64,000 bases of DNA from Escherichia phage PSD2001. The position numbers and the translations under genes were made by a program. The notes beneath the pieces were generated by a model that saw only the letters and a list, made by a program, of their open reading frames with translations, had not been told where the DNA came from and searched no databases. The stretch lies in the sequence record OK254198.1, one strand, 5' to 3'. Positions 5,700 through 62,085 of this stretch are shown in pieces (position 1 is the first letter of the stretch; each line of letters starts with the position of its first letter).

Positions 5700-7437
5700 G
5701 AACTCCGAACAAACGAGCTTCAGACGCGGTGGACCTAATAAAAAGCTTATCGAAGAATTAGCACCACAAAGGAGGGCGGAAGCCCTCTCTGCTGAACAGA
5801 ATGATGAATTATCGAATCTGAATACAACTCTTACAAATACTCAGGCTGCAACCGAACTTGTATCGGAAGCTATTGAGGATAAGGGTAATCAGATTATAGA
5901 GAATATCCAAACCAATAATGGAGTCCTCCAGGATATCAGTGCTGGGGTCGAACTGACGGCCGAAGCCACCGAGAAGACTCAACAAGGGATTAAAAACCTC
6001 ACGGATATTCTCTCGGATAAGCTCGACAAACTCAGCGCAATGATAAGTGGTAAACTAGGCGTCACGTCTCCTGTGGCTGGTTCTGAAAGCCTTAAACCTG
6101 TGGAGGATGCACTACCAGAGCCTGAAGAGAATAAGCCCACGGCGAGCGTTCCAACGCTCATACCGCCTGAAGAACAAAAGCCCGACGCTGACTTCATTCC
6201 GGAACCAGAACAGCCAAAAACCGATGCAGAAGGCAAAGAGACTAATACCTGGTCACTTGGTGATAAGCTTGATACCCTTTCGAAGATAACCGAAAAAGGA
6301 TTTAAGGCATCGATTTCTGTAGCCGACCGAATCTCCGGAATGTTGTTCAAATATACAATTACAGCTGCAGCCGAAGCAGCCAAGCTTATTGGTGGATTAT
6401 TGTTGTTGGTATTCGGTATCGATGCAATACGAGTTTACTTCCAATATTTCATGAAGCAATTCGAAAAAGGATGGGCCGAATTTAATGATAAGTTCAAAGA
6501 ATGGGGCCCACTGCTTGAAGGACTAATGACTTGGGCTAAGAACGCGCAAGCGATGTTTAGTGAAAAGAATTGGTTGGGATTAGCTGAAGCTATTATCCGT
6601 GGGATGGTCAACTTAACGAAGAACATGGCTCAACTTCTTATGCTTGGTATTTCGAAACTGATTTCAGCTATCTTAAGCAAAATCCCTGGGATGGGCGATT
6701 TAGCAGATAATGTGGAAGCCTCAGCTTTGATGTCTTATCAGCAAAATACAGGGGCAACTCTGGATGATGAAGACCAAACCAAGATAGCAAAATATCATGA
6801 CAAACGTTCGGCTGAAGCAATGGAAGCTGCAGAGAAGATGAATAAGAAGTATAAGGATAAACCTGAACTAATTAATCAAGCCGAAAAATATGGTAACCTT
6901 ACCAAGGAACAAGCTGACCAGCTTCGCGCGGGTGGGATTGACACAAGCTTCAGAGACCTTCCGGAAGAAGAACGTCTGGACTATTTCAAGAAGCGTGACA
7001 AAGCACAGGCTGATATTATTCGTTTGACCCAAACTGCTGACAACCTAATGAAGCCAGACGCAACCGATAAAAAGAATGCGATGGAAATGAGAGCTAACAT
7101 TGAAAAACAATTAGCTGACCCAGCTATGGCAAAAGGTGGAGCTCCGAAAGACCTGAATATGCGCGCCCTGTTGGAAAAACTTGATAAGTCTCTCGAGAAG
7201 TTCAAAGACGAACCGAAAGTTAAACCGCCGGATGTTAAGACTTCTCCGGATGCACAACAAGCTGCAAAGGTTGACGAAGGCATGAAGGCCAAAGAAAATA
7301 AATACAAGGATGCACCAGCTCAGGCACAAATTAACACGGTCAATAATATTCAGAAGACTTCCAGGACGCAATACAATATGCCTCCTCAAAGTTCAACCCC
7401 TGCCCCTGGCATGAGACAGGCCACGAGAATTAACTAA
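5692..7437 (+). CDS. 29: baseplate hub / tail length determining protein gp29
   Basis: 581 aa, synteny, Pro/Glu-rich central linker. Confidence 0.8.
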   Translation: MNKNSEQTSFRRGGPNKKLIEELAPQRRAEALSAEQNDELSNLNTTLTNTQAATELVSEAIEDKGNQIIENIQTNNGVLQDISAGVELTAEATEKTQQGIKNLTDILSDKLDKLSAMISGKLGVTSPVAGSESLKPVEDALPEPEENKPTASVPTLIPPEEQKPDADFIPEPEQPKTDAEGKETNTWSLGDKLDTLSKITEKGFKASISVADRISGMLFKYTITAAAEAAKLIGGLLLLVFGIDAIRVYFQYFMKQFEKGWAEFNDKFKEWGPLLEGLMTWAKNAQAMFSEKNWLGLAEAIIRGMVNLTKNMAQLLMLGISKLISAILSKIPGMGDLADNVEASALMSYQQNTGATLDDEDQTKIAKYHDKRSAEAMEAAEKMNKKYKDKPELINQAEKYGNLTKEQADQLRAGGIDTSFRDLPEEERLDYFKKRDKAQADIIRLTQTADNLMKPDATDKKNAMEMRANIEKQLADPAMAKGGAPKDLNMRALLEKLDKSLEKFKDEPKVKPPDVKTSPDAQQAAKVDEGMKAKENKYKDAPAQAQINTVNNIQKTSRTQYNMPPQSSTPAPGMRQATRIN

Positions 7438-9499: not shown

Positions 9500-9531
9500 A
9501 AAGAAAGGGACCCGAAGGTCCCTTTTTTATT
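9497..9531. terminator. bidirectional intrinsic terminator
   Basis: Hairpin GGGACC-CGAA-GGTCCC flanked by an A-run and a T-run, between convergent gene 54 and the minus-strand ORF. Confidence 0.7.
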
Positions 9532-9850: not shown

Positions 9851-9880
9851 TATATCGCACTTCCTTGTGCTTGTAAACCC

Positions 9881-11941
9881 CTACGAAAGGAATTTAGGAG
9901 GAATAGCTTCCAAATTAATACAACTAGCAAGAATACCAAGACCTTGATTGACTTTCTTCGTTACCCCAGAGGATGCAAACGATGCAAAGTCAACAGATTC
10001 TGCTGGCTCTTCTGGTTCCTTGCCCTGATAAACGACAAGCTCACCAGTTTCCATCAACACATCACCATCATAGATAACTGCATTTTCATCCAGTTGGTCC
10101 GTAGTCTGGATATCAGCTTCCAGCATTTTGACGTTCGCGTTTCCTTGATACGAAGCATCAGTAATTTTGGTAATCTTAACTACAGTCCCACGAGGAAGAA
10201 TAACTTCCTGCTCGGATGGGTTGCTTGACAATTCCCCAGGAACAATTACGTTAATTAAGTCCGCCCCAGAAATTTTCCAACCAACATGCATCATTACGTG
10301 GTCGCGGCGTGCAGCCGGCATATCTGGTAAAACAATTTCGTCATCAGCCTGGAAAGATGTCCCATCACGATAGTCCTGATGAACTGCAGCCATAGCAACG
10401 TTCGCCACCCAGCCACCAAAGATAATCGGTTTAAACGACGTTGATACATAGTTCCTGAAATAAAATAATTTAGATTTCTTAATTTTATCAAATGTAGGAA
10501 CGTTTAAATATTGACCACGCCAAAGAGTTGTATTAGGCGGCAACTTATGTCCAATTTCAAAGGCCGAATCCAATTCCTTAATTGTTTCGACAACTCTGTC
10601 TAGATTTAGGAATTCAGCTTCTTCTTCATAATATTTACCCATCAAATAATTATTAATATCGGCATAGTTTGCTCCACAATAATCTGCAATTGCTTCTCGC
10701 TGGCCATAATGGAAACGGTTGTCAGTATACCCTGCTGTGAAATTAAGAGTATTTTCTGATGCTTCTTCGGCAAAGTCTTTAACTGCAACACGAATGGCGC
10801 TCGTGTATTCTTTTTCCCAGAGCGAGGCTGCATAAGTAGCTGCATCCAGGTTAGGAGGAGCATCATTCATTTTTCTTTCGATAAATGCAGCTTTGCGAAG
10901 GTTAAGAATCTCGGCACATGATTCGGCAAAAATCTGCATCTGCTTCATACTACCAACCGGAGCACGTTTAAGTTCACGATGCATACGGTTAAAAATTGGG
11001 TCAGAGTCTTCAACACGAATTTCTTCTTTCCAAACACCATTTGCTCGCATAGCCGTATCTGCTGCACGCATACGAGCCATAGTATTCGTTTCGGAAGGTC
11101 GAACAAAAATTTCCAGTTCTTCATAATCATCGATAAGTTCTGCCGTAGCCGGTCGACTAAACTTAGCAGCTTCTGCATCAATTTCGTCCCAGCCATCGGG
11201 CACGGAATCACTTGGAGCGTACTGGGCTTGTGCAATAGCTCGGCGACTGATTTTAGTTTTCTGGGCAACAGCAGCATCGGTCTTTTTGTTTGCTGCATCA
11301 ATCAGAACTTCGGCTGCGATTTCTTGTTTGGAGACTTGTGCGCCTGTATCTTTATTAGTGAATACATCGCCGACTTTAGTTTCAACTTTTTGATATTTCT
11401 CAGGGACCGGTGGCATACCATCAACCGAAAGCAGGTCAACACCCTTTTTGTACATAATTACATAAGCGTTCTTTTTACCGAGGCCAGAAGCATTCGGAAG
11501 AACATGATAACGCCCGCTGGTTTTCATTTGAATCAGTCGATTCATAATACGAATAACAGCTTGGTCTTGTCCTTTCATCTTTTTGGATGGGAAACGGAAC
11601 AAGACTACATCAGGTTTACCTAGTTTAATGCTTTCCCAGACTGTAACAAAAATCAGGTTAATTGCATCAAGAGGTTTTTCACCTAGACCACCCTTCAGAG
11701 GAACAGCATGGCCATGTGAAGTCCCGGAGAGCAGGAATACCTCGGCAATTGCATCACCACGTTTATATTGTTTAACTGTTTCTTTGCCCGTAAATTGCAT
11801 CAAACGAGCCATAAGAGAATTGGTCCCAGGAACACCGAATTGCCAAACCTGTGGGACCTTGTATTTTGGATTCATATTAATGACAGGATAACCGAAGGCT
11901 TCGATATATTTGTCAAAGAGTTCATTTAATTGTTCAGACAT
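9881..11941 (-). CDS. alt: Alt-type ADP-ribosyltransferase
   Basis: 686 aa (T4 Alt 682); C-terminal R-S-E core: LWRGQ, YVSTSF, SEQEVILPRGT; ATG confirmed. Confidence 0.85.
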   Translation of the reverse strand: MSEQLNELFDKYIEAFGYPVINMNPKYKVPQVWQFGVPGTNSLMARLMQFTGKETVKQYKRGDAIAEVFLLSGTSHGHAVPLKGGLGEKPLDAINLIFVTVWESIKLGKPDVVLFRFPSKKMKGQDQAVIRIMNRLIQMKTSGRYHVLPNASGLGKKNAYVIMYKKGVDLLSVDGMPPVPEKYQKVETKVGDVFTNKDTGAQVSKQEIAAEVLIDAANKKTDAAVAQKTKISRRAIAQAQYAPSDSVPDGWDEIDAEAAKFSRPATAELIDDYEELEIFVRPSETNTMARMRAADTAMRANGVWKEEIRVEDSDPIFNRMHRELKRAPVGSMKQMQIFAESCAEILNLRKAAFIERKMNDAPPNLDAATYAASLWEKEYTSAIRVAVKDFAEEASENTLNFTAGYTDNRFHYGQREAIADYCGANYADINNYLMGKYYEEEAEFLNLDRVVETIKELDSAFEIGHKLPPNTTLWRGQYLNVPTFDKIKKSKLFYFRNYVSTSFKPIIFGGWVANVAMAAVHQDYRDGTSFQADDEIVLPDMPAARRDHVMMHVGWKISGADLINVIVPGELSSNPSEQEVILPRGTVVKITKITDASYQGNANVKMLEADIQTTDQLDENAVIYDGDVLMETGELVVYQGKEPEEPAESVDFASFASSGVTKKVNQGLGILASCINLEAIPPKFLS

Positions 11942-11950
11942 TTTTAACCC

Positions 11951-13825
11951 TTAATTGAGAAGGTGTACAAGTTTTTCCATAGACAAATCATAAGAGATTC
12001 TGTCATATTTTTTCAAAAGCGAATTTGATTCGTCTATCTGGTCATTTTCTAAGATAGAGCATTCAACGAGAATGTATTTACCCATCGAACCCATCATGCC
12101 AGCTGTAGCACCATAGACTTTATCAATCTTAAGCATTGTTCCACGTGGAAGAATAACTTCGGTTTCAACGGACCAGTTTGCCAGGTCACCAGGAATAACT
12201 ACCTTGATATTTTCTGCACCTTTGATAATCATACCAATCTTGATTGTAGGTTTCGCCGAACCAGTTGCACTTTTAATAGTTGCATCGATTGCCCCATCAT
12301 CGATATCACTCGATAATGCATTTGGGTCAAGGTTCGCAGCGGTGTGGCCCATACGACCGAAAATATTTGGCGCCAGAGATGTACTCGCAAACATAGGAAG
12401 ATACATCGTTTTATTTTTGATGGAATTAATTGCCATATCGGTTGGCATGACTTGAGCACGGTAGATGATAGTTCCTTTTGGAAGCTTAACACCGTTTTCA
12501 AATACTTTATCCATATCGGAAATCATTTTGATTTCGCTTTCTTTTGCGTCAGCTTTCCCTAGCAGGAAATTATTGATTGCAGTATATTTTCCGCGAGTAT
12601 ACGCCTTAATTGCTTCGGCCTGGTCTTCAGTTATTTCAGGGTTGTCGGAGATATGAAATAATGGTTGGATGGCCTTGGTGTAAATTTCATCTGCAATAAT
12701 ACGAATAGCTTCTTTAGTCTTATCTTCGCGCGCCCAGGTTCCCACAATGGAGTCGTCAAGCAACATATCAGCAACTCTACGCAATGTATCAACAGGATTC
12801 TTTGAGGCTCGCAGGACGTTCGAAAACTCACTTATTTTGTGTTCCATGCCGACTTCTTTAAGAGCATTAAGCACATCCATAGCTACACGAGTTTTTGTCT
12901 TATCTTCACCGACATCGCCTTGCGCGACTAAATCAAAATAATCTGCATATTCATCACCTGCTCGGTCGATTACTTTTATCGAAGCTTTAGCTATCTGACT
13001 TTCTCTGGCATCATCTGTTGAATGCACTGCGCTGGTAGTCGAGAGCTTCGTATAAATCTCTTTATGTTCTGGCGAGAATTTAGCAAGCCCAGTTGGTTCG
13101 TTCCCCGAATACAACGCATTAATAGCCGCGCGTTTAGAAAACTTGGTTTTAACAACAACTGCCTGGTCTGTACGTTTTTCTTCAACCTTTGCAATGGATG
13201 CTGCAATAGCTTCATTTTTGGTAACAGTTTCACCGCTGGCTTTATCCACATAAACATCACCAACTTTCGATTCCACTTTTGTGTATAGCTCAGTGTTGAT
13301 GCCTGGAATTCCGGCGATAGATTCAATCGGTTTGGATTTACGATAAATCAATACGTAAGTATGTTTACCTGTGTATTGATACATATCATCCAGGACTTTG
13401 AATTGGCCACCCGCGCGAGCCATAATAAGTCGAGCAAGAACACGCTGAATGGTTCGTTCTTGCCCCTTCATTTTACGGGTCGGGAAGCGGAACATAATTG
13501 CATCCATTTTCATCAGTTTTACTTGTTCGTAAACTACATCAAAAATGGATTTAATTGCTCCAATCGGGTTATCACCAAGACCACCTTTAAGAATAGCTGG
13601 AGTACCGTTTGAATTTAATGACATCAAAATAACGTGTGCATACTTATCGCCAGTTTTGACCTGTTTAATAGCATCGCCTTCGGATGCGTAAGACACCATA
13701 CGAGCAATAAGATTATCATTCCCCGGGACCTGGATATTCCAAATCTGTGGAACTTTTGACTTTGAAAGGTTAATGGCCGGGATATTAGATTCCCCTTCAA
13801 AAACCTCTGACAATAATTCGGTCAT
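11951..13825 (-). CDS. second Alt-type ADP-ribosyltransferase (paralog)
   Basis: 624 aa; same N-terminal KVPQIW...VPG...LIARM pattern and R-S-E core (YRAQ, FASTSL, VETEVILPRGT); ATG confirmed. Confidence 0.8.
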   Translation of the reverse strand: MTELLSEVFEGESNIPAINLSKSKVPQIWNIQVPGNDNLIARMVSYASEGDAIKQVKTGDKYAHVILMSLNSNGTPAILKGGLGDNPIGAIKSIFDVVYEQVKLMKMDAIMFRFPTRKMKGQERTIQRVLARLIMARAGGQFKVLDDMYQYTGKHTYVLIYRKSKPIESIAGIPGINTELYTKVESKVGDVYVDKASGETVTKNEAIAASIAKVEEKRTDQAVVVKTKFSKRAAINALYSGNEPTGLAKFSPEHKEIYTKLSTTSAVHSTDDARESQIAKASIKVIDRAGDEYADYFDLVAQGDVGEDKTKTRVAMDVLNALKEVGMEHKISEFSNVLRASKNPVDTLRRVADMLLDDSIVGTWAREDKTKEAIRIIADEIYTKAIQPLFHISDNPEITEDQAEAIKAYTRGKYTAINNFLLGKADAKESEIKMISDMDKVFENGVKLPKGTIIYRAQVMPTDMAINSIKNKTMYLPMFASTSLAPNIFGRMGHTAANLDPNALSSDIDDGAIDATIKSATGSAKPTIKIGMIIKGAENIKVVIPGDLANWSVETEVILPRGTMLKIDKVYGATAGMMGSMGKYILVECSILENDQIDESNSLLKKYDRISYDLSMEKLVHLLN

Positions 13826-13860: not shown

Positions 13861-13890
13861 AAAAAAGGGCCGAAGCCCTTTTGTTATTTT
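13861..13890 (-). terminator. intrinsic terminator after ligase
   Basis: Hairpin GGGC-cgaa-GCCC followed by a T-run on the minus strand. Confidence 0.6.
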
Positions 13891-18295: not shown

Positions 18296-18362
18296 TTTAT
18301 TCTCCAGTGTTTGGTTTGTTGGTACAGGTCTATAATATCATAACCTGTACCAAAGTAAACTG
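18296..18362 (-). promoter_or_regulatory. early promoter / stem-loop cassette
   Basis: Conserved leader, inverted repeat GGTACAGG...CCTGTACC with an AT-rich loop, GTAAAC -35-like element. Confidence 0.4.
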
Positions 18363-18733: not shown

Positions 18734-18806
18734 TTTATTCTCCAGTGTTTTATTGTGTAACTCAGTATGGAATCATTATGCACTGGACCAACCCTGTTGT
18801 AAACCC
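18734..18806 (-). promoter_or_regulatory. early promoter cassette with conserved leader
   Basis: Minus strand reads TTTACAA, 16 nt, CATAATG, then ATTCCATACTGAGTTAC leader and GGAG. Confidence 0.45.
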
Positions 18807-18814
18807 CTTTATGG

Positions 18815-18842
18815 AAAATAAAAAGGGACTCCGAAGAGTCCC
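18815..18842 (-). terminator. intrinsic terminator
   Basis: Hairpin GGGACTC-cgaa-GAGTCCC followed by a T-run on the minus strand. Confidence 0.65.
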
Positions 18843-18847
18843 TGAAC

Positions 18848-20410: not shown

Positions 20411-20644
20411 TTATTCCAGAATAGTTTTGATAGTGGTTGCATTACGCTCTTTTAGAGCTCTTAATAGGCTATGACAATTATCAAGAATAGGCACCGTTTT
20501 ATATTTCATTTCGGCGCGAACCCACTCGGATTTATAGTACGATTTCCAACGAGAGAAAAAGTACTTTTTATATTCTACTGAAAAGGCTACCAGGTTTTCA
20601 CCTTTTGAGTTCAGACCTGAAAACTTAACTAGACGAAATTTCAT
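20411..20644 (-). CDS. hypothetical protein (31.2 position)
   Basis: 77 aa track ORF. Confidence 0.5.
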   Translation of the reverse strand: MKFRLVKFSGLNSKGENLVAFSVEYKKYFFSRWKSYYKSEWVRAEMKYKTVPILDNCHSLLRALKERNATTIKTILE

Positions 20645-23187: not shown

Positions 23188-23195
23188 TATAAATA
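23188..23195 (+). promoter_or_regulatory. late promoter TATAAATA for the HNH gene
   Basis: Plus-strand TATAAATA ~26 nt upstream of the ATG at 23222. Confidence 0.5.
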
Positions 23196-23221: not shown

Positions 23222-25079
<1,858 letters not shown>

Positions 25080-25083
<4 letters not shown>

Positions 25084-25562
25084 ACGCCAAGCTCCTTATA
25101 AAGTTCTTCGCGACAGGTTTTAAGGATTTTACCAGTTTCATAAGCATCACTTTCAGAAACATCACCAAGTGCAGCGGCAGATTGCATTTGACCATGGCGT
25201 TTAGCTGCATATTCAAAACTTTTTACTAGCTCACGAATACGTTCTTTTTCATTGTATTCTTCAATAAATTCTGGGTATTCCCAAACAGGTCGCATCATAC
25301 GATACCAATGCTGAATAGTAATATAATTACTTCCATCCAGATTAATAATTTGCGAAGGCTTAATAGCGCCCGGAGCATAAAAAGTTACCTGTCTTACTAC
25401 ATCAATACCGTCCACCATAGCCCAAGCAAAATCAAAAGTTGCCTTCTTTTCAATTGGTGTACTTGCGCAGGACCCTAATTTTAAGAGCTTTTGTAATGCA
25501 GGGGATTTAACACCTGAAATGTATTCAGGATTAGATACAAAAGAATTGTCACGTAAAGTCAT
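25080..25562 (-). CDS. hypothetical protein
   Basis: Track ORF trimmed to MTLRDNSF with GAGGA RBS. Confidence 0.5.
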
Positions 25563-25589
25563 AATAATTTCCTCAAATTTTATAATCCG

Positions 25590-25630
25590 TGGGAACATTA
25601 TACTCTGCTCCCATGAGTTTGTACACTACT
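25590..25630 (-). promoter_or_regulatory. early promoter cassette
   Basis: Minus strand GTGTACAA, 16 nt, TATAATG, with flanking inverted repeat. Confidence 0.4.
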
Positions 25631-28730: not shown

Positions 28731-28752
28731 AAAAAGGGCCGAAGCCCTTTCC
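28731..28752 (-). terminator. intrinsic terminator after nrdB
   Basis: Hairpin GGGC-ttcg-GCCC plus T-run on the minus strand, ending ~5 nt before the denA ATG. Confidence 0.55.
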
Positions 28753-34711: not shown

Positions 34712-34951
34712 TCACGCTTTCTTAGCGATTTTCCAGTCAGCTTTAAATTGGTCAACATCAGAGTGGTGAATCCAGAAACCAGATGAGCTACCATCTTCAT
34801 AAAGAGGACAACCATCACACTCATCTTTCCAACCCATTGCACACAAAGTTTCTTCAGCTTTTTCCAGAGCTTCTGGATTGTTACCCTGGATTGTAAAGTA
34901 CCATTTGCCTTTAACTTCTGAATCTTTGATGCTCTCACGTTGTAATTTCAT
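34712..34951 (-). CDS. hypothetical protein (frd.x)
   Basis: 79 aa; conserved CTGGAGAATAAAATG initiation region. Confidence 0.55.
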   Translation of the reverse strand: MKLQRESIKDSEVKGKWYFTIQGNNPEALEKAEETLCAMGWKDECDGCPLYEDGSSSGFWIHHSDVDQFKADWKIAKKA

Positions 34952-35025
34952 TTTATTCTCCAGGGTTTTAGTTGTTAACTCAGTATGGGACCATTATGTC
35001 ATAGCCCCATTTGGTTGTACACTAC
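34952..35025 (-). promoter_or_regulatory. early promoter cassette with conserved leader
   Basis: GTGTACAA, 16 nt, CATAATGG, ACTGAGTTAAC leader, GGAG. Confidence 0.45.
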
Positions 35026-35028
35026 TTT

Positions 35029-35295
35029 TTAAATTTTATCAAGCCATTTTCCAAGTTTAGTCATTTCCTTGGTGGCTTTTTCCATACTTCTGAACTTAAC
35101 TAATAAAGGATAGGTATCTACACCCATCACCAGATTGGTTGCAAGACTATGTTCACCCACAAGCCATAATGAGTATGTTTGAACATCCAGACCATAATTT
35201 CTGTCTTTATGTAAACGTACACCCATTACTTCAAACTGTTCACTCGCCCTTTCTACTGCGTCCAGGAAATCATCTTTAGTCATATTAGACCCCAA
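35029..35295 (-). CDS. hypothetical protein (frd.x)
   Basis: 88 aa track ORF. Confidence 0.5.
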   Translation of the reverse strand: MGSNMTKDDFLDAVERASEQFEVMGVRLHKDRNYGLDVQTYSLWLVGEHSLATNLVMGVDTYPLLVKFRSMEKATKEMTKLGKWLDKI

Positions 35296-35647
35296 AAGTT
35301 GCTTTAATCAATGCAATGACTTCCGCAGCATTTTTGTGATTGACTTGCACATGAATGGTTTGGGTATCAACATCAGGAGCATCGCCATCAACTTCCAGGA
35401 AGTGGCGGAATTCACTTTCAGAGAGTTCAAAATAATCATCAGCTCCATCGCTATTCAGGATGGTACCATCTTTCATTTCAACTTTTTCAACAAAATAATC
35501 ACCTTCAATATAACACATATCCAGGACTTTGAAGGAATTACCATGTTGTTCCATCAACTTGACCATACACGAATTAGATTTAGGATTTTCTTTAATGAAA
35601 CGTTTTTTGGCAGCAGGGTCTAATACGTAAAATTTACCAGTTTCCAT
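35285..35647 (-). CDS. hypothetical protein, DDYFELSE-motif paralog 1
   Basis: Trimmed to METGKF with GAGGA RBS; shares DGADDYFELSESEF with the ORF at 35994. Confidence 0.5.
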   Translation of the reverse strand: METGKFYVLDPAAKKRFIKENPKSNSCMVKLMEQHGNSFKVLDMCYIEGDYFVEKVEMKDGTILNSDGADDYFELSESEFRHFLEVDGDAPDVDTQTIHVQVNHKNAAEVIALIKATFGV

Positions 35648-35649
35648 TT

Positions 35650-35705
35650 TAATTTCCTCATATTCAATTGGGAACATATTATCATGTTCCCGTTGGTTTG
35701 TATAC
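35650..35705 (-). promoter_or_regulatory. early promoter / stem-loop cassette
   Basis: Inverted repeat GGGAACAT...ATGTTCCC around an AT-rich core, GTATACAA -35-like element. Confidence 0.35.
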
Positions 35706-35932
35706 TAAGCTTCAATCAAATTCATATAAAATTCAGCGTCTTCCGGGTGCATCCCTTCGCAATACTCATCAGCCATAAAGCGGGTAAGGTCTTCAAGAGG
35801 ACCTTGGACTTCAATTTGCATACTACAGAATTGCTTATCTTTAATGTAAGTCATGCACAAAGAAGGATAACGATTGCGAATAACTTCGTAAGTGTATTCA
35901 AAATCAACGATATCAATATTAACCTTAGCCAT
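35705..35932 (-). CDS. hypothetical protein
   Basis: 75 aa track ORF. Confidence 0.5.
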
Positions 35933-35934
35933 TT

Positions 35935-35993
35935 TATTTTCCTCATGTAGTTGATAGGTCTATAGTATCTCAACCATAGACCCTTGTAAACTG
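35935..35993 (-). promoter_or_regulatory. early promoter / stem-loop cassette
   Basis: Inverted repeat GGTCTAT...ATAGACC, GTTTACAA -35-like element. Confidence 0.35.
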
Positions 35994-36356
35994 CTATTTG
36001 AAAGCTTTTTGTAGAAGTTCAATGATTTGGTCAACGTTATTAGCATCCACAACACAATTAATAGAAACCGCACCTGAAGGTGTTTTTGCATAACTAGAGT
36101 ATTCACGGAAGCAATAAAACTCTTCTTCACTAAGTTCAAAATAATCATCGCCCATACCATCATCATTATAGATTGCACCATTAGCACAAATGATTTCGGT
36201 TACATAATCATAGCCGTCTGCACTTGATATTGATTTAACTTCAAACCAACCGCCATTTTCTTGGATGATGTCGACCATACCAGCATTCGATGAACTAATA
36301 TCAATGAAAGATTTAATACGATGTGGATTGAACTCATATTTTTTGCCGATTTCCAT
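35994..36356 (-). CDS. hypothetical protein, DDYFELSE-motif paralog 2
   Basis: 120 aa; DGMGDDYFELSEEEF. Confidence 0.5.
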   Translation of the reverse strand: MEIGKKYEFNPHRIKSFIDISSSNAGMVDIIQENGGWFEVKSISSADGYDYVTEIICANGAIYNDDGMGDDYFELSEEEFYCFREYSSYAKTPSGAVSINCVVDANNVDQIIELLQKAFK

Positions 36357-36359
36357 TTT

Positions 36360-36425
36360 AATTTCCTCAGTTGTTATCAGTAGTTGATGGAATCATTATG
36401 CCTTAGCTCAAAGGACTTGTACACT
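36360..36425 (-). promoter_or_regulatory. early promoter cassette
   Basis: GTGTACAA, 16 nt, CATAATG, leader ATTCCATCAACTACTG. Confidence 0.4.
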
Positions 36426-36433
36426 ACTTTTTG

Positions 36434-53160: not shown

Positions 53161-53195
53161 AAATAAAAAAGGACCCCGAAGGGTCCTAGTCTTTA
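53161..53195 (-). terminator. intrinsic terminator
   Basis: Hairpin GGACCC-ttcg-GGGTCC plus TTTTTTATTTT on the minus strand. Confidence 0.7.
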
Positions 53196-55059: not shown

Positions 55060-55509
55060 TTAATAGCTCTGCAGAATGAATTTAAAGTTATCAGCAAGCA
55101 TGCGATTCATTTCTGAAAGGGTCTGACAATCAGAACTATGTGAGCGTGTGAACGCCATCGCAATTTGACCTTTACCATAACCAGTTGTCAAAGGTTTCAT
55201 TTTAGAAACTGGAACAAACAGGACTTCATAGATAACACCATTGTTCGCCATTGTGCGCGACAGTTGTGAACGCTGTTTGCGGATGTGACTTAATACAGTG
55301 TCAAACCCTTGTTGTGAACGTTGGTTACCAACGTAAAAACGTGCAGCAACAATACGTGATTCGCCTTCACCTTTAACCACGAAATAAAAACCTGGTTGGG
55401 TGATAGCTTCTTTAGTTGGACGCCCTACAACATAATTGCCATTATGGATGTGAGCAACAGTGGTAGCGCCAGCATTCAGTACGTCACGACGGGTCATGTA
55501 AGTAGTCAT
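55060..55509 (-). CDS. ndd: nucleoid disruption protein Ndd
   Basis: 149 aa; strong similarity to remembered T4 Ndd ([55 protein letters not shown]). Confidence 0.9.
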
Positions 55510-55544
55510 ATTAATTTCCTCAGTAAGTTAAAGTTTTGTGCTCC

Positions 55545-55585
55545 AGTGGGGTCATTATACTCTGACCCCAAGAGTTTGTACACTA
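55545..55585 (-). promoter_or_regulatory. early promoter / stem-loop cassette
   Basis: GTGTACAA, 16 nt, TATAATG; the -10 sits in the loop of GGGGTCA...TGACCCC. Confidence 0.4.
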
Positions 55586-56325: not shown

Positions 56326-56436
56326 CAGAAGTTAAAGAATACGCGTACATGGTCAATCATAAAAACAATTGGGAAAATGCTCAGGACAACAAACAGTACA
56401 AACATGTTCCAAATGGCTTTAAGTAACTTTTTCATA
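56326..56436 (-). CDS. 36 aa hydrophobic peptide
   Basis: Hand-translated MKKLLKAIWNMFVLFVVLSIFPIVFMIDHVRVFFNF; GGAGA RBS; coordinates approximate. Confidence 0.3.
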
Positions 56437-56445
56437 ATCATCTCC

Positions 56446-56495
56446 AGTAGTTGATAGGTTCATTATACTACAACCACTGGAGATGTACACTCTTT
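56446..56495 (-). promoter_or_regulatory. early promoter / stem-loop cassette
   Basis: GTGTACAT, ~15 nt, TATAATG inside inverted repeat CTCCAGT...ACTGGAG. Confidence 0.4.
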
Positions 56496-56844: not shown

Positions 56845-56915
56845 TTTGTTTCTCCAGTCTGTTTGGTAACTCAGTATGAAGCCATTATGCACTGACTCCA
56901 TACTGATGTACACTA
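56845..56915 (-). promoter_or_regulatory. early promoter cassette with conserved leader
   Basis: GTGTACAT, 16 nt, CATAATGG, TTCATACTGAGTTAC leader. Confidence 0.45.
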
Positions 56916-57193: not shown

Positions 57194-57240
57194 GATAATG
57201 TCCTCATTTGTTGGTATGAGGACATTATTACACAGTTGGT

Positions 57241-57834
57241 TCAGCTTGTAAACCGGTGATAGGGAAATTTTTCTTCTGAACAAGAACGGAGGTACCAGCC
57301 ATCCCCTTGTGACTTTTGCACAAGACCAGACTCAGGAACGAAAGCACCAGGTCCAGCAAGGAATTTTGGCTTAAAACGATAACCTTTGATAGTCTCTTTT
57401 ACATTAAACATAATCATAAGGTCAGCAAGCTTGTGTTGCATAAAAGGACCAAGATTGACCCCGTAACCATGCGGATAATCGCCCTGGTGACCAGTATGCA
57501 CGGATATCCATTTGGAACCGGACTGATGAGTCTTGACTTCAATTCTTACGCCTTCTTTCGAAACTACATCAAATGCAAAGGAATAAGGATTATCGTAATC
57601 TTCATCACCGCCGCATAAAAAGCCGGAGGTCCATTTGGCAATAGCTTGTTCTGCCATTGTAGCCACCATACATCTTTGCATGACTTGCTCACGGTCCTGG
57701 CCAGGGTCTTTACGTAATGAATACCTGGCAGTGTCTACAATCTTTTGCAGTGATTCTGGGGTTAAGTCTTCTTTTGTATAAAGAAAGGAAGGCATCTTTT
57801 TCAGATGCTCCCATGTTTTACTCTTCTGAATCAT
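57241..57834 (-). CDS. denB: endonuclease IV-like (positional)
   Basis: 197 aa between ndd cluster and rIIB (T4 denB 185 aa); no motif-level confirmation. Confidence 0.45.
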   Translation of the reverse strand: MIQKSKTWEHLKKMPSFLYTKEDLTPESLQKIVDTARYSLRKDPGQDREQVMQRCMVATMAEQAIAKWTSGFLCGGDEDYDNPYSFAFDVVSKEGVRIEVKTHQSGSKWISVHTGHQGDYPHGYGVNLGPFMQHKLADLMIMFNVKETIKGYRFKPKFLAGPGAFVPESGLVQKSQGDGWYLRSCSEEKFPYHRFTS

Positions 57835-62057: not shown

Positions 62058-62085
62058 TAAAAAAGGACCCGAAGGTCCTTTTGGC
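62058..62085 (-). terminator. intrinsic terminator
   Basis: Hairpin GGACC-ttcg-GGTCC plus TTTTTTATT on the minus strand. Confidence 0.65.

Follow-up and report, generated by a model that had tools for sequence, protein, structure and literature searches.

Stem-loops laid over the early promoters of a Gaprivervirus-like coliphage follow the PeSL architecture and may insulate successive early transcription units

Early-promoter cassettes that carry a stem-loop, called PeSLs (promoter-early stem-loop), were described by Arbiol et al. in 2010 for the phages RB49 and phi1 (PMC2839356). In lacZ reporters, the RB49/phi1 PeSLs acted both as promoters and as attenuators, and they recombined in the loop; crossovers in mini-circles were mapped to the loop, and a protein binding to the stem was speculated about. 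Comeau et al. extended the PeSLs in 2014 to PST/T4 and nt-1/KVP40 (PMC4122927). Another precedent are the T4 genes e, soc, 49 and I-TevI, for which an inhibitory RNA helix forms in long transcripts and is relieved when transcription starts inside the helix (PMC3014915). Here we analyzed a stretch of DNA of 64,000 nucleotides, called the window throughout, and found that its early promoters carry cassettes of the PeSL architecture, hence of an already described kind, in another genus (Gaprivervirus-like). As far as the accessible parts of Arbiol 2010 and Comeau 2014 go, Gaprivervirus and Dhakavirus lie outside the phages analyzed there.

The window belongs to a T4-like coliphage close to VR20 and SP18, and VR20 is classified as Tevenvirinae, Gaprivervirus. 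Between 54.8 and 57 kb it is 93-96% identical to its closest relatives P479, phage 212, SP18 and VR20; JS10 (Dhakavirus) is ~79% identical across the 74% of this query that is covered. The annotation of the relatives gives ndd, ndd.1, ndd.4 and denB on the minus strand of this region. The ndd gene is the minus-strand ORF 55060-55509, and the hairpin at the center of this study is located directly upstream of it. Elsewhere, the segment 23162-23859, which is missing from all eight relatives compared, holds a homing endonuclease gene (ORF 23222-23947, plus strand; phrog_655, E = 7e-63) on the strand opposite to its neighbors, with a T4 late-promoter-like TATAAATA at 23188-23195 upstream of the ORF. 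Two tandem Alt-like ADP-ribosyltransferase genes (PF03496) are found on the minus strand at 9881-11941 and 11951-13825; the second is without a nucleotide-level match in the VR20-like relatives.

We found 16 early promoters in the window, all on the minus strand and of the form GT[T/G/A]TAC[A/T]-N16/17-TATAAT-like. Their first bases are at 9878, 18360, 18804, 22403, 25626, 27172, 35022, 35705, 35991, 36424, 50642, 53149, 55583, 56490, 56913 and 57253. The cassettes are 60-80 bp long and are built in a constant order: an A/T-rich tract, the GT[T/G/A]TAC[A/T] box, 16-17 nt of spacer, the TATAAT-like box, 15-40 nt, and finally SD and ATG. The stop codon of the upstream gene lies 0-6 nt before the -35, and the 25 nt upstream of the -35 contain 72% A+T compared with 59% window-wide. 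Each promoter leads via an SD and an ATG into a small minus-strand ORF (36-180 aa), and most of these ORFs are without assigned function. In a generic sigma-70 scan, the promoters at 55582, 56489, 56912, 53148 and 50641 score 9-10 of 12. The ndd cassette (55507-55583, minus strand) has its -35 GTGTACA at 55577-55583, its -10 TATAAT at 55554-55559, its SD GAGGA at 55517-55521 and its ATG at 55507-55509. The preliminary description of this DNA had noticed -10-like elements within hairpins at five sites, and these elements are indeed part of real promoter cassettes with a -35, a spacer and the SD and ATG of a small minus-strand ORF.

At all five sites a perfect inverted repeat of 7-11 bp brackets the -10 of a T4-type early promoter (minus strand). 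This agrees with the initial claim, which placed the -10 in the loop or on the shoulder of such a repeat, and several repeats are longer than first given. Four sites are also where they had been placed, while the third, put at ~35660-35685, is found at 35670-35691, ~6-10 nt further to the right. The focal hairpin upstream of ndd (55547-55570, minus strand) pairs TGGGGTCA (55563-55570) with TGACCCCA (55547-55554) in a stem of 8 bp that closes a loop of 8 nt. The loop holds the first five bases of the -10, and the last T of the -10 opens the 3' arm. Over a 66-nt segment the RNA of this site folds with -19.4 kcal/mol (z -2.7), and the DNA fold reaches a z of -4.5.

The stems fall into two classes. 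Class A comprises the focal site and, counted among stems of 7 bp or more, 25 of 35; its 5' arm is in the spacer, its 3' arm starts a few bases from the -10, and its loops measure 6-20 nt. In class B, the 5' arm is an anti-SD sequence located after or across the -35, or across the -10, and it pairs with the SD as 3' arm; of the 10 long-loop stems, 9 have a 3' arm that overlaps the SD. Three further class A hairpins of the window, all on the minus strand, are found at promoter 35705 (35670-35691, GGGAACAT/ATGTTCCC, 8 bp, loop 6 nt, -10 TAATAT at 35676-35681), at promoter 35991 (35957-35982, GGTCTAT/ATAGACC, 7 bp, loop 12 nt, -10 TACTAT at 35962-35967) and at promoter 18360 (18319-18353, TTGGTACAGGT/ACCTGTACCAA, 11 bp, loop 13 nt, -10 at 18332-18337, z -3.9). 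Class B is represented in the window by the promoters 56490, 57253 and 18804. The hairpin of promoter 56490 (56439-56485, minus strand) pairs CATCTCCAGT with ACTGGAGATG, 10 bp perfectly and 12 bp with one G·U, around a loop of 27 nt that includes the -10 at 56462-56467. Its 5' arm CATCTCCAGT(GG) begins in the -35, its first two bases being the last two of GTGTACA, and its 3' arm (CT)ACTGGAGATG includes GGAG, the SD of a membrane-like ORF of 36 aa (ATG 56433-56435). The fold reaches -25.5 kcal/mol (z -6.7), while the promoter's own transcript is unstructured (-0.9). Promoter 57253 (57195-57253, minus strand; GTTTACA 57247-57253, -10 AATAAT 57224-57229) carries a perfect 13-bp repeat ATAATGTCCTCAT/ATGAGGACATTAT over 57195-57228, whose 3' arm provides the SD for an ORF of 68 aa; here the read-through RNA folds with -20.9 kcal/mol (z -4.0) and the own transcript with -2.0. 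This promoter is situated within the 3' end of the upstream gene. Promoter 18804 has a long-range stem of 7 bp, UCCAGUG/CACUGGA, between spacer and SD region (18741-18787, minus strand), and a canonical terminator is located just upstream at 18824-18843.

Additional minus-strand hairpins were detected at promoter 56913 (56871-56906, -10 CATAAT 56884-56889), where TCAGTATG/CATACTGA pair without mismatch over the outer 8 bp and G·U pairs bring the RNA helix to 14 bp (-22.8 kcal/mol, z -3.7), at promoter 25626 (25590-25613, GGGAGCAG/UGUUCCC with G·U), whose cassette belongs to the same family as that of the ndd promoter, and at promoter 35022 (34985-35010, AUGGGGCUAU/AUGGUCCCAU, 10 bp with G·U, -10 CATAAT 34993-34998). 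In total, 8 promoters have the -10 inside a hairpin loop (15 of the 16 were folded), with RNA z values from -1.5, the weakest of the eight at promoter 35022, to -6.7; single-strand folds of the five original sites give z -2.3 to -6.7. Two promoters of the window have short spacer hairpins, three or four have anti-SD stems, and ~5 of the 16 are without any convincing stem. The view that the stems keep their position is only roughly correct: all arms lie astride the -10 or overlap it, but the centers and the loop sizes (6-29 nt) vary. Because stems and loops are variable and the boxes are those of ordinary sigma-70 promoters, we set N4-type hairpin promoters and single-strand promoters aside.

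Compared with the described PeSLs, sigma-70-type boxes ~17 nt apart, an A/T-rich upstream tract, a stem-loop overlapping the promoter, and an SD with a small ORF are all present in the window. As in the published PeSLs, copies of the cassette recur among the small early ORFs of variable regions, many stems are of the G-run/C-run type, and G·T pairs occur within stems; loop crossovers and shuffling of promoter-plus-ORF modules are seen here in individual examples. There are also differences. The promoter box is the T4-type GT(T/G)TACA here and TTGACA in RB49. The stem-loops of PST/T4 are placed just upstream of the promoter (PMC4122927), whereas those of the window and of T4 motB and dmd straddle the -10. 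Many stems of the window are not G/C runs, the stems are diverse in sequence, no T-tract comes after them, and we found no mention of an anti-SD subclass in the parts of Arbiol 2010 and Comeau 2014 available to us. Finally, promoter and attenuator activity come from experiment for RB49/phi1 only, while the cassettes of the window are known from their sequence.

T4 was included with its first 50 kb, in which we located promoters by pattern alone since the RefSeq record holds no promoter features. The upstream promoter of dmd (T4 locus L075, ~20560-20612) carries GACAAGACTA/TAGTCTTGTC, a stem of 10 bp that spans its -10, so that T4 itself has the class A arrangement. A scan of viral contigs with AGTTTACA-N17-TATAAT (14 specified bases) was non-specific among the matches listed, and the loci from it (L077 onward) were excluded. 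Rfam covariance models gave zero matches at the gathering threshold anywhere in the window.

The hairpins are more frequent than expected by chance. Of the 16 window promoters, 6 have their -10 enclosed by a perfect repeat of 7 bp or more, while the background frequency over all hexamer positions is 5.1% (binomial P = 9e-5). Additionally, complementarity between spacer and downstream segment is higher within a window promoter than between different promoters (permutation P < 5e-5), and this pairing of cognate against non-cognate halves controls for position-specific composition. We then collected loci around ndd, gp52, nrdB and DNA ligase from related phages and obtained 92 non-redundant early promoters. 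Perfect stems of 7 bp or more that span the -10 occur in 38% of them and in 4% of the non-cognate pairings (permutation P < 2e-4).

The helix is kept while its sequence changes. The stem of the ndd promoter, TGGGGTCA/TGACCCCA in the window, reads CGAGAATC/GGTTCTCG at the same place in the JS98/JS10 group (Dhakavirus ortholog). Among orthologous and paralogous cassettes, the same helix written with other letters is seen in GGGGTCA/TGACCCC, GGGAGCA/TGCTCCC and GGGACCA/TGGTCCC (T4 motB). Orthologs of the promoters 22403 and 18360 have unrelated stems at the same place, namely GGTAGGAC/GTCCTACC, GGTAGAG/CTCTACC, GCTGATTGAGTGT/ACACTCAATCAGC and GTAGGAGAC/GTCTCCTAC, of which the last two are stems of different sequence in distant orthologs of promoter 18360. 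The cassette family AACTCTTGGGnnCAGAGTATAATGnnCCC, which comprises the ndd and 25626 promoters of the window, several loci in relatives and the T4 motB promoter, could be aligned. In this alignment two-sided, compensatory changes are found at 3 of 8 pairs, 97% of the cells are paired compared with 37-59% when the partner is slid, and the covariation score of 0.319 versus 0.178 was exceeded by 0 of 500 shuffles. For promoter 56490, the 9 orthologs are 98% paired, with one compensatory pair and with one-sided changes that all lead to G·U. The proposal that the stems differ in sequence and are selected for structure is therefore borne out by covariation across related phages, the analysis suggested for it: the orthologous intergenic regions of the relatives keep the helix with different letters, and the stems are thus conserved as structures. 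We conclude that the hairpins are real and are maintained by selection for pairing.

Near-identical AACTCTTGGGnnCAGAGTATAATGnnCCC cassettes lie at 55540-55583 and 25585-25626 of the window and at ~7170-7215 of T4 (L075). The genes they drive are unrelated (ndd, a 160-aa ORF at 25562, and T4 motB). In these cassettes GGAG or GGAT follows 2-3 nt past the stem and, judged by its letters, is a possible RegB site.

One could argue that the helix has no function and is a by-product of promoter constraints, with a G-rich spacer and a C-rich -3 to -1, or of quasi-palindrome mutation or cassette copying. Several stems are indeed G-run/C-run pairs, C is known to be preferred at -3 to -1 (PMC1524935), the cassettes have clearly been copied and recombined between loci, and some promoters are stemless. 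However, many stems are not G/C runs (GGTACAGG/CCTGTACC, GGTCTAT/ATAGACC, CAGTATG/CATACTG, GCTGATTGAGTGT/ACACTCAATCAGC), the variable inner positions covary, and the test of cognate against non-cognate halves takes composition into account. In addition, a neutral by-product is not expected to be linked to the absence of a terminator and to the SD, as discussed below. We consider this explanation improbable.

At which level does the helix act? A sigma-70 promoter starts transcription ~7 nt after the -10. With this geometry, together with the C preference at -3 to -1 that Nolan et al. reported for related phages (PMC1524935), the start site would be at or past the end of the 3' arm or in the loop. 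The promoter's own transcript should thus be without the 5' arm, and the helix should be possible only in RNA that reads through from upstream, or in DNA. Own transcripts are predicted to be unstructured (-0.9 to -2.0 kcal/mol), compared with -20 to -25 kcal/mol for the read-through form. Three observations point to RNA of the sense strand. The mismatches internal to stems are G·T in 10 cases, A·C in 3 and other in 4, whereas the control gives 15%, 16% and 69%. One-sided changes that keep a standard pair lead to G·U in 7 of 7 cases in the alignments of the AACTCTTGGGnnCAGAGTATAATGnnCCC family and of the promoter 56490 orthologs. Folding of both strands, which the preliminary description had advised, gives the sense strand a stability advantage of 1.24 kcal/mol over the antisense (P = 0.01; +0.2 in the shuffled control). 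Moreover, loops reach 29 nt, which is tolerable in RNA. These signals are mutually consistent and modest in size, since the G·U and A·C counts are small (10 versus 3) and the energy asymmetry is modest. The helix is probably an RNA helix on the sense strand. A literature search for maps of T4 start sites and RNA 3' ends found none among the papers covered.

The intergenic stems past stop codons could simply be ordinary intrinsic (Rho-independent) terminators that overlap the next promoter by happenstance. In its favor, the stem-loop of the RB49/phi1 PeSL cut lacZ expression about as much as rrnB T1 (PMC2839356), and stems and canonical terminators nearly exclude each other. Among the 35 stems of at least 7 bp, however, 0 have at least 5 T in the 8 nt past the 3' arm; the mean of 1.9 T equals the background. 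The terminator scan made no call at the -10 hairpins, yet it called the true terminators at 53170-53187 and 62061-62082. These genuine terminators of the phage are of a different design, with a UUCG tetraloop and a T-run. We therefore rejected the reading of the -10 hairpins as canonical intrinsic terminators, and a chance overlap of this kind is highly improbable. Without a T-tract, efficient intrinsic termination by the class A stems is unlikely as well. The idea of a combined promoter and RNA processing or termination signal thus holds for the promoter and probably for a signal at the RNA level, and fails for the canonical terminator. A promoter joined to an RNA-level signal, with the whole also serving recombination as a substrate, is precisely what the PeSL concept describes (PMC2839356).

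G+C-rich hairpins with a UUCG tetraloop are located on the minus strand at 9504-9525, 13863-13882, 18824-18843, 28733-28750, 53170-53187 and 62061-62082; the following T-run was checked for 53170-53187 and 62061-62082, the two called by the terminator scan, and for 18824-18843. Of the 35 promoters with a stem of 7 bp or more, only 1 also has a canonical terminator upstream, compared with 18 of the 57 promoters that lack a stem of this length (Fisher P = 0.001). This near-exclusion suggests that the two are alternative ways of handling transcripts that arrive from upstream. In this respect the stems are similar to the terminators and stabilizer hairpins of bacterial operons, being stable intergenic hairpins just past a stop codon that stand in for a true terminator. 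They differ in that a U-tract is missing and the loop is the -10 element, and a role in protecting the RNA 3' end is putative.

We also asked how the SD is affected. Its accessibility is more than halved in the read-through form at 14 of 92 promoters, compared with 1 in the non-cognate control. Masking of the SD as the general function was rejected, as the accessibility showed no difference between a cognate and a non-cognate upstream segment (P = 0.39). SD masking is consequently a property of a subclass of ~15% of the cassettes, which is class B. At the focal class A site (55547-55570), the SD is free in both RNA forms. The class B cassettes 56490, 57253 and 18804 resemble T4 e, soc, 49 and I-TevI in that the anti-SD arm lies upstream of the putative start, so that the SD would be sequestered only in read-through RNA. 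The documented T4 cases of masking switch on a later internal promoter and are hence temporal switches. Here, the internal promoter is itself early and the contrast is one between neighboring early units; and, again unlike T4 e, soc, 49 and I-TevI, the class A stems, the focal one included, leave the SD untouched.

The cassettes are also shuffled. Between 35.0 and 36.0 kb, the promoter-plus-ORF modules with the ORFs starting at 35932 and 35647 are in reverse order in 5 of the 8 relatives compared; this swapped order is seen when window positions 34950-36430 are set against the loci L021, L022, L024, L026 and L030. Chimeric cassettes, with halves from different cassette types, occur upstream of the 35647 ortholog in L024 and upstream of the 18733 ortholog in L030, and their crossovers are in the loop or at the -35. 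Some chimeric cassettes have arms that are not complementary, from which it follows that the helix is not indispensable. In a crude test based on greedy gene calls, blastn HSP ends and 8 relatives, homology breakpoints were not enriched at promoter junctions over other gene junctions (6 of 12 versus 32 of 66, P = 1). Of the suggestion that the hairpins form a recombination hotspot, individual examples of shuffling and chimeras thus remain, and a general enrichment of breakpoints at promoter junctions does not.

These exchanges bear on the view that the repeat acts in DNA. In this view, supercoiling or replication would let it extrude into a cruciform or hairpin, and RNA would be irrelevant. 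It could then tune promoter melting or shut-off, or serve as a substrate for recombination or endonuclease VII. The single strand of DNA does fold (z -2.3 to -5.6), chimeric cassettes cross over in the loop or at the -35 with promoter-plus-ORF modules being swapped, and the mini-circles of Arbiol et al. had their crossovers in the loop and led to the speculation about a stem-binding protein (PMC2839356). But strand-asymmetric mismatches (G·T 10 versus A·C 3) and one-sided changes to G·U would be meaningless for a duplex palindrome, the class B arms pair specifically with the SD, and the stems avoid promoters that have an upstream terminator, which a promoter function at the DNA level does not predict. 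Breakpoints, as stated, are not enriched at promoter junctions. Long loops are poor for cruciforms in general, and loops of 8-29 nt on stems of 7-8 bp are poor for extrusion. We regard an action in DNA as unlikely.

The reading we prefer is that, in these PeSL-type cassettes, a sense-RNA helix in read-through transcripts insulates successive early transcription units; we give it a probability of roughly 60%. A cassette consists of a strong sigma-70 promoter of the T4 early type with its A/T-rich upstream tract and SD/ATG, overlain by an inverted repeat. The arms fill the only sequence-free parts of the cassette, which are the 17-nt spacer and either the segment from -6 to +1 or a segment of the 5'-UTR, and because the arms take these parts, the -10 ends up in the loop or on the shoulder. 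With a putative start site that in class A coincides with the end of the 3' arm and in class B falls within the loop, the hairpin would be exclusive to RNA reading through from the upstream gene, and we infer its effect for that RNA. In class B, the anti-SD arm would mask the downstream RBS, so that the gene would be translated from its own transcript or when a ribosome coming from upstream opens the stem. In class A, the helix would form an intercistronic barrier, acting as an attenuator and/or as a hairpin that protects the 3' end, and would replace a true terminator. As a secondary effect, the conserved cassette may provide short homology for the exchange of promoter-plus-ORF modules.

A conserved hairpin without a promoter, GGCCGCG...UGCGGCC, is found upstream of ndd in T-even-type phages (L009-L012 and L014, ~1440-1465). 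It has the same intercistronic position as the ndd promoter hairpin of the window, and its variation is mostly in the loop or towards G·U. Such a hairpin is consistent with a function independent of the promoter, in which case the overlap with the -10 would be a result of packing into a 70-nt intergenic space. One may further speculate, though we find it rather doubtful, that the hairpins are a general tag of transcript origin, with both arms present only in RNA that began upstream. If so, read-through and promoter-proximal copies could be treated differently in translation, in access for RegB or RNase, or in decay. Every small early gene would then work as an expression unit of its own, insulated despite read-through, and the two classes would be two ways of applying a single principle, with canonical terminators as a third.

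In summary, coliphages of the Gaprivervirus and Dhakavirus type join the PeSL scheme with their early intergenic regions, as does T4 with the motB and dmd promoters. To the original descriptions our analysis adds points that were left unquantified there, which are the compensatory retention of the helix, a substitution pattern that points to sense RNA, and the use of the stems instead of true terminators; the SD masking by a subclass is a further quantitative point. For annotation and engineering, the cassettes are at once promoters, boundaries of transcription units and likely recombination joints. A change in one arm or the swap of a cassette can therefore alter the expression of both neighboring genes.
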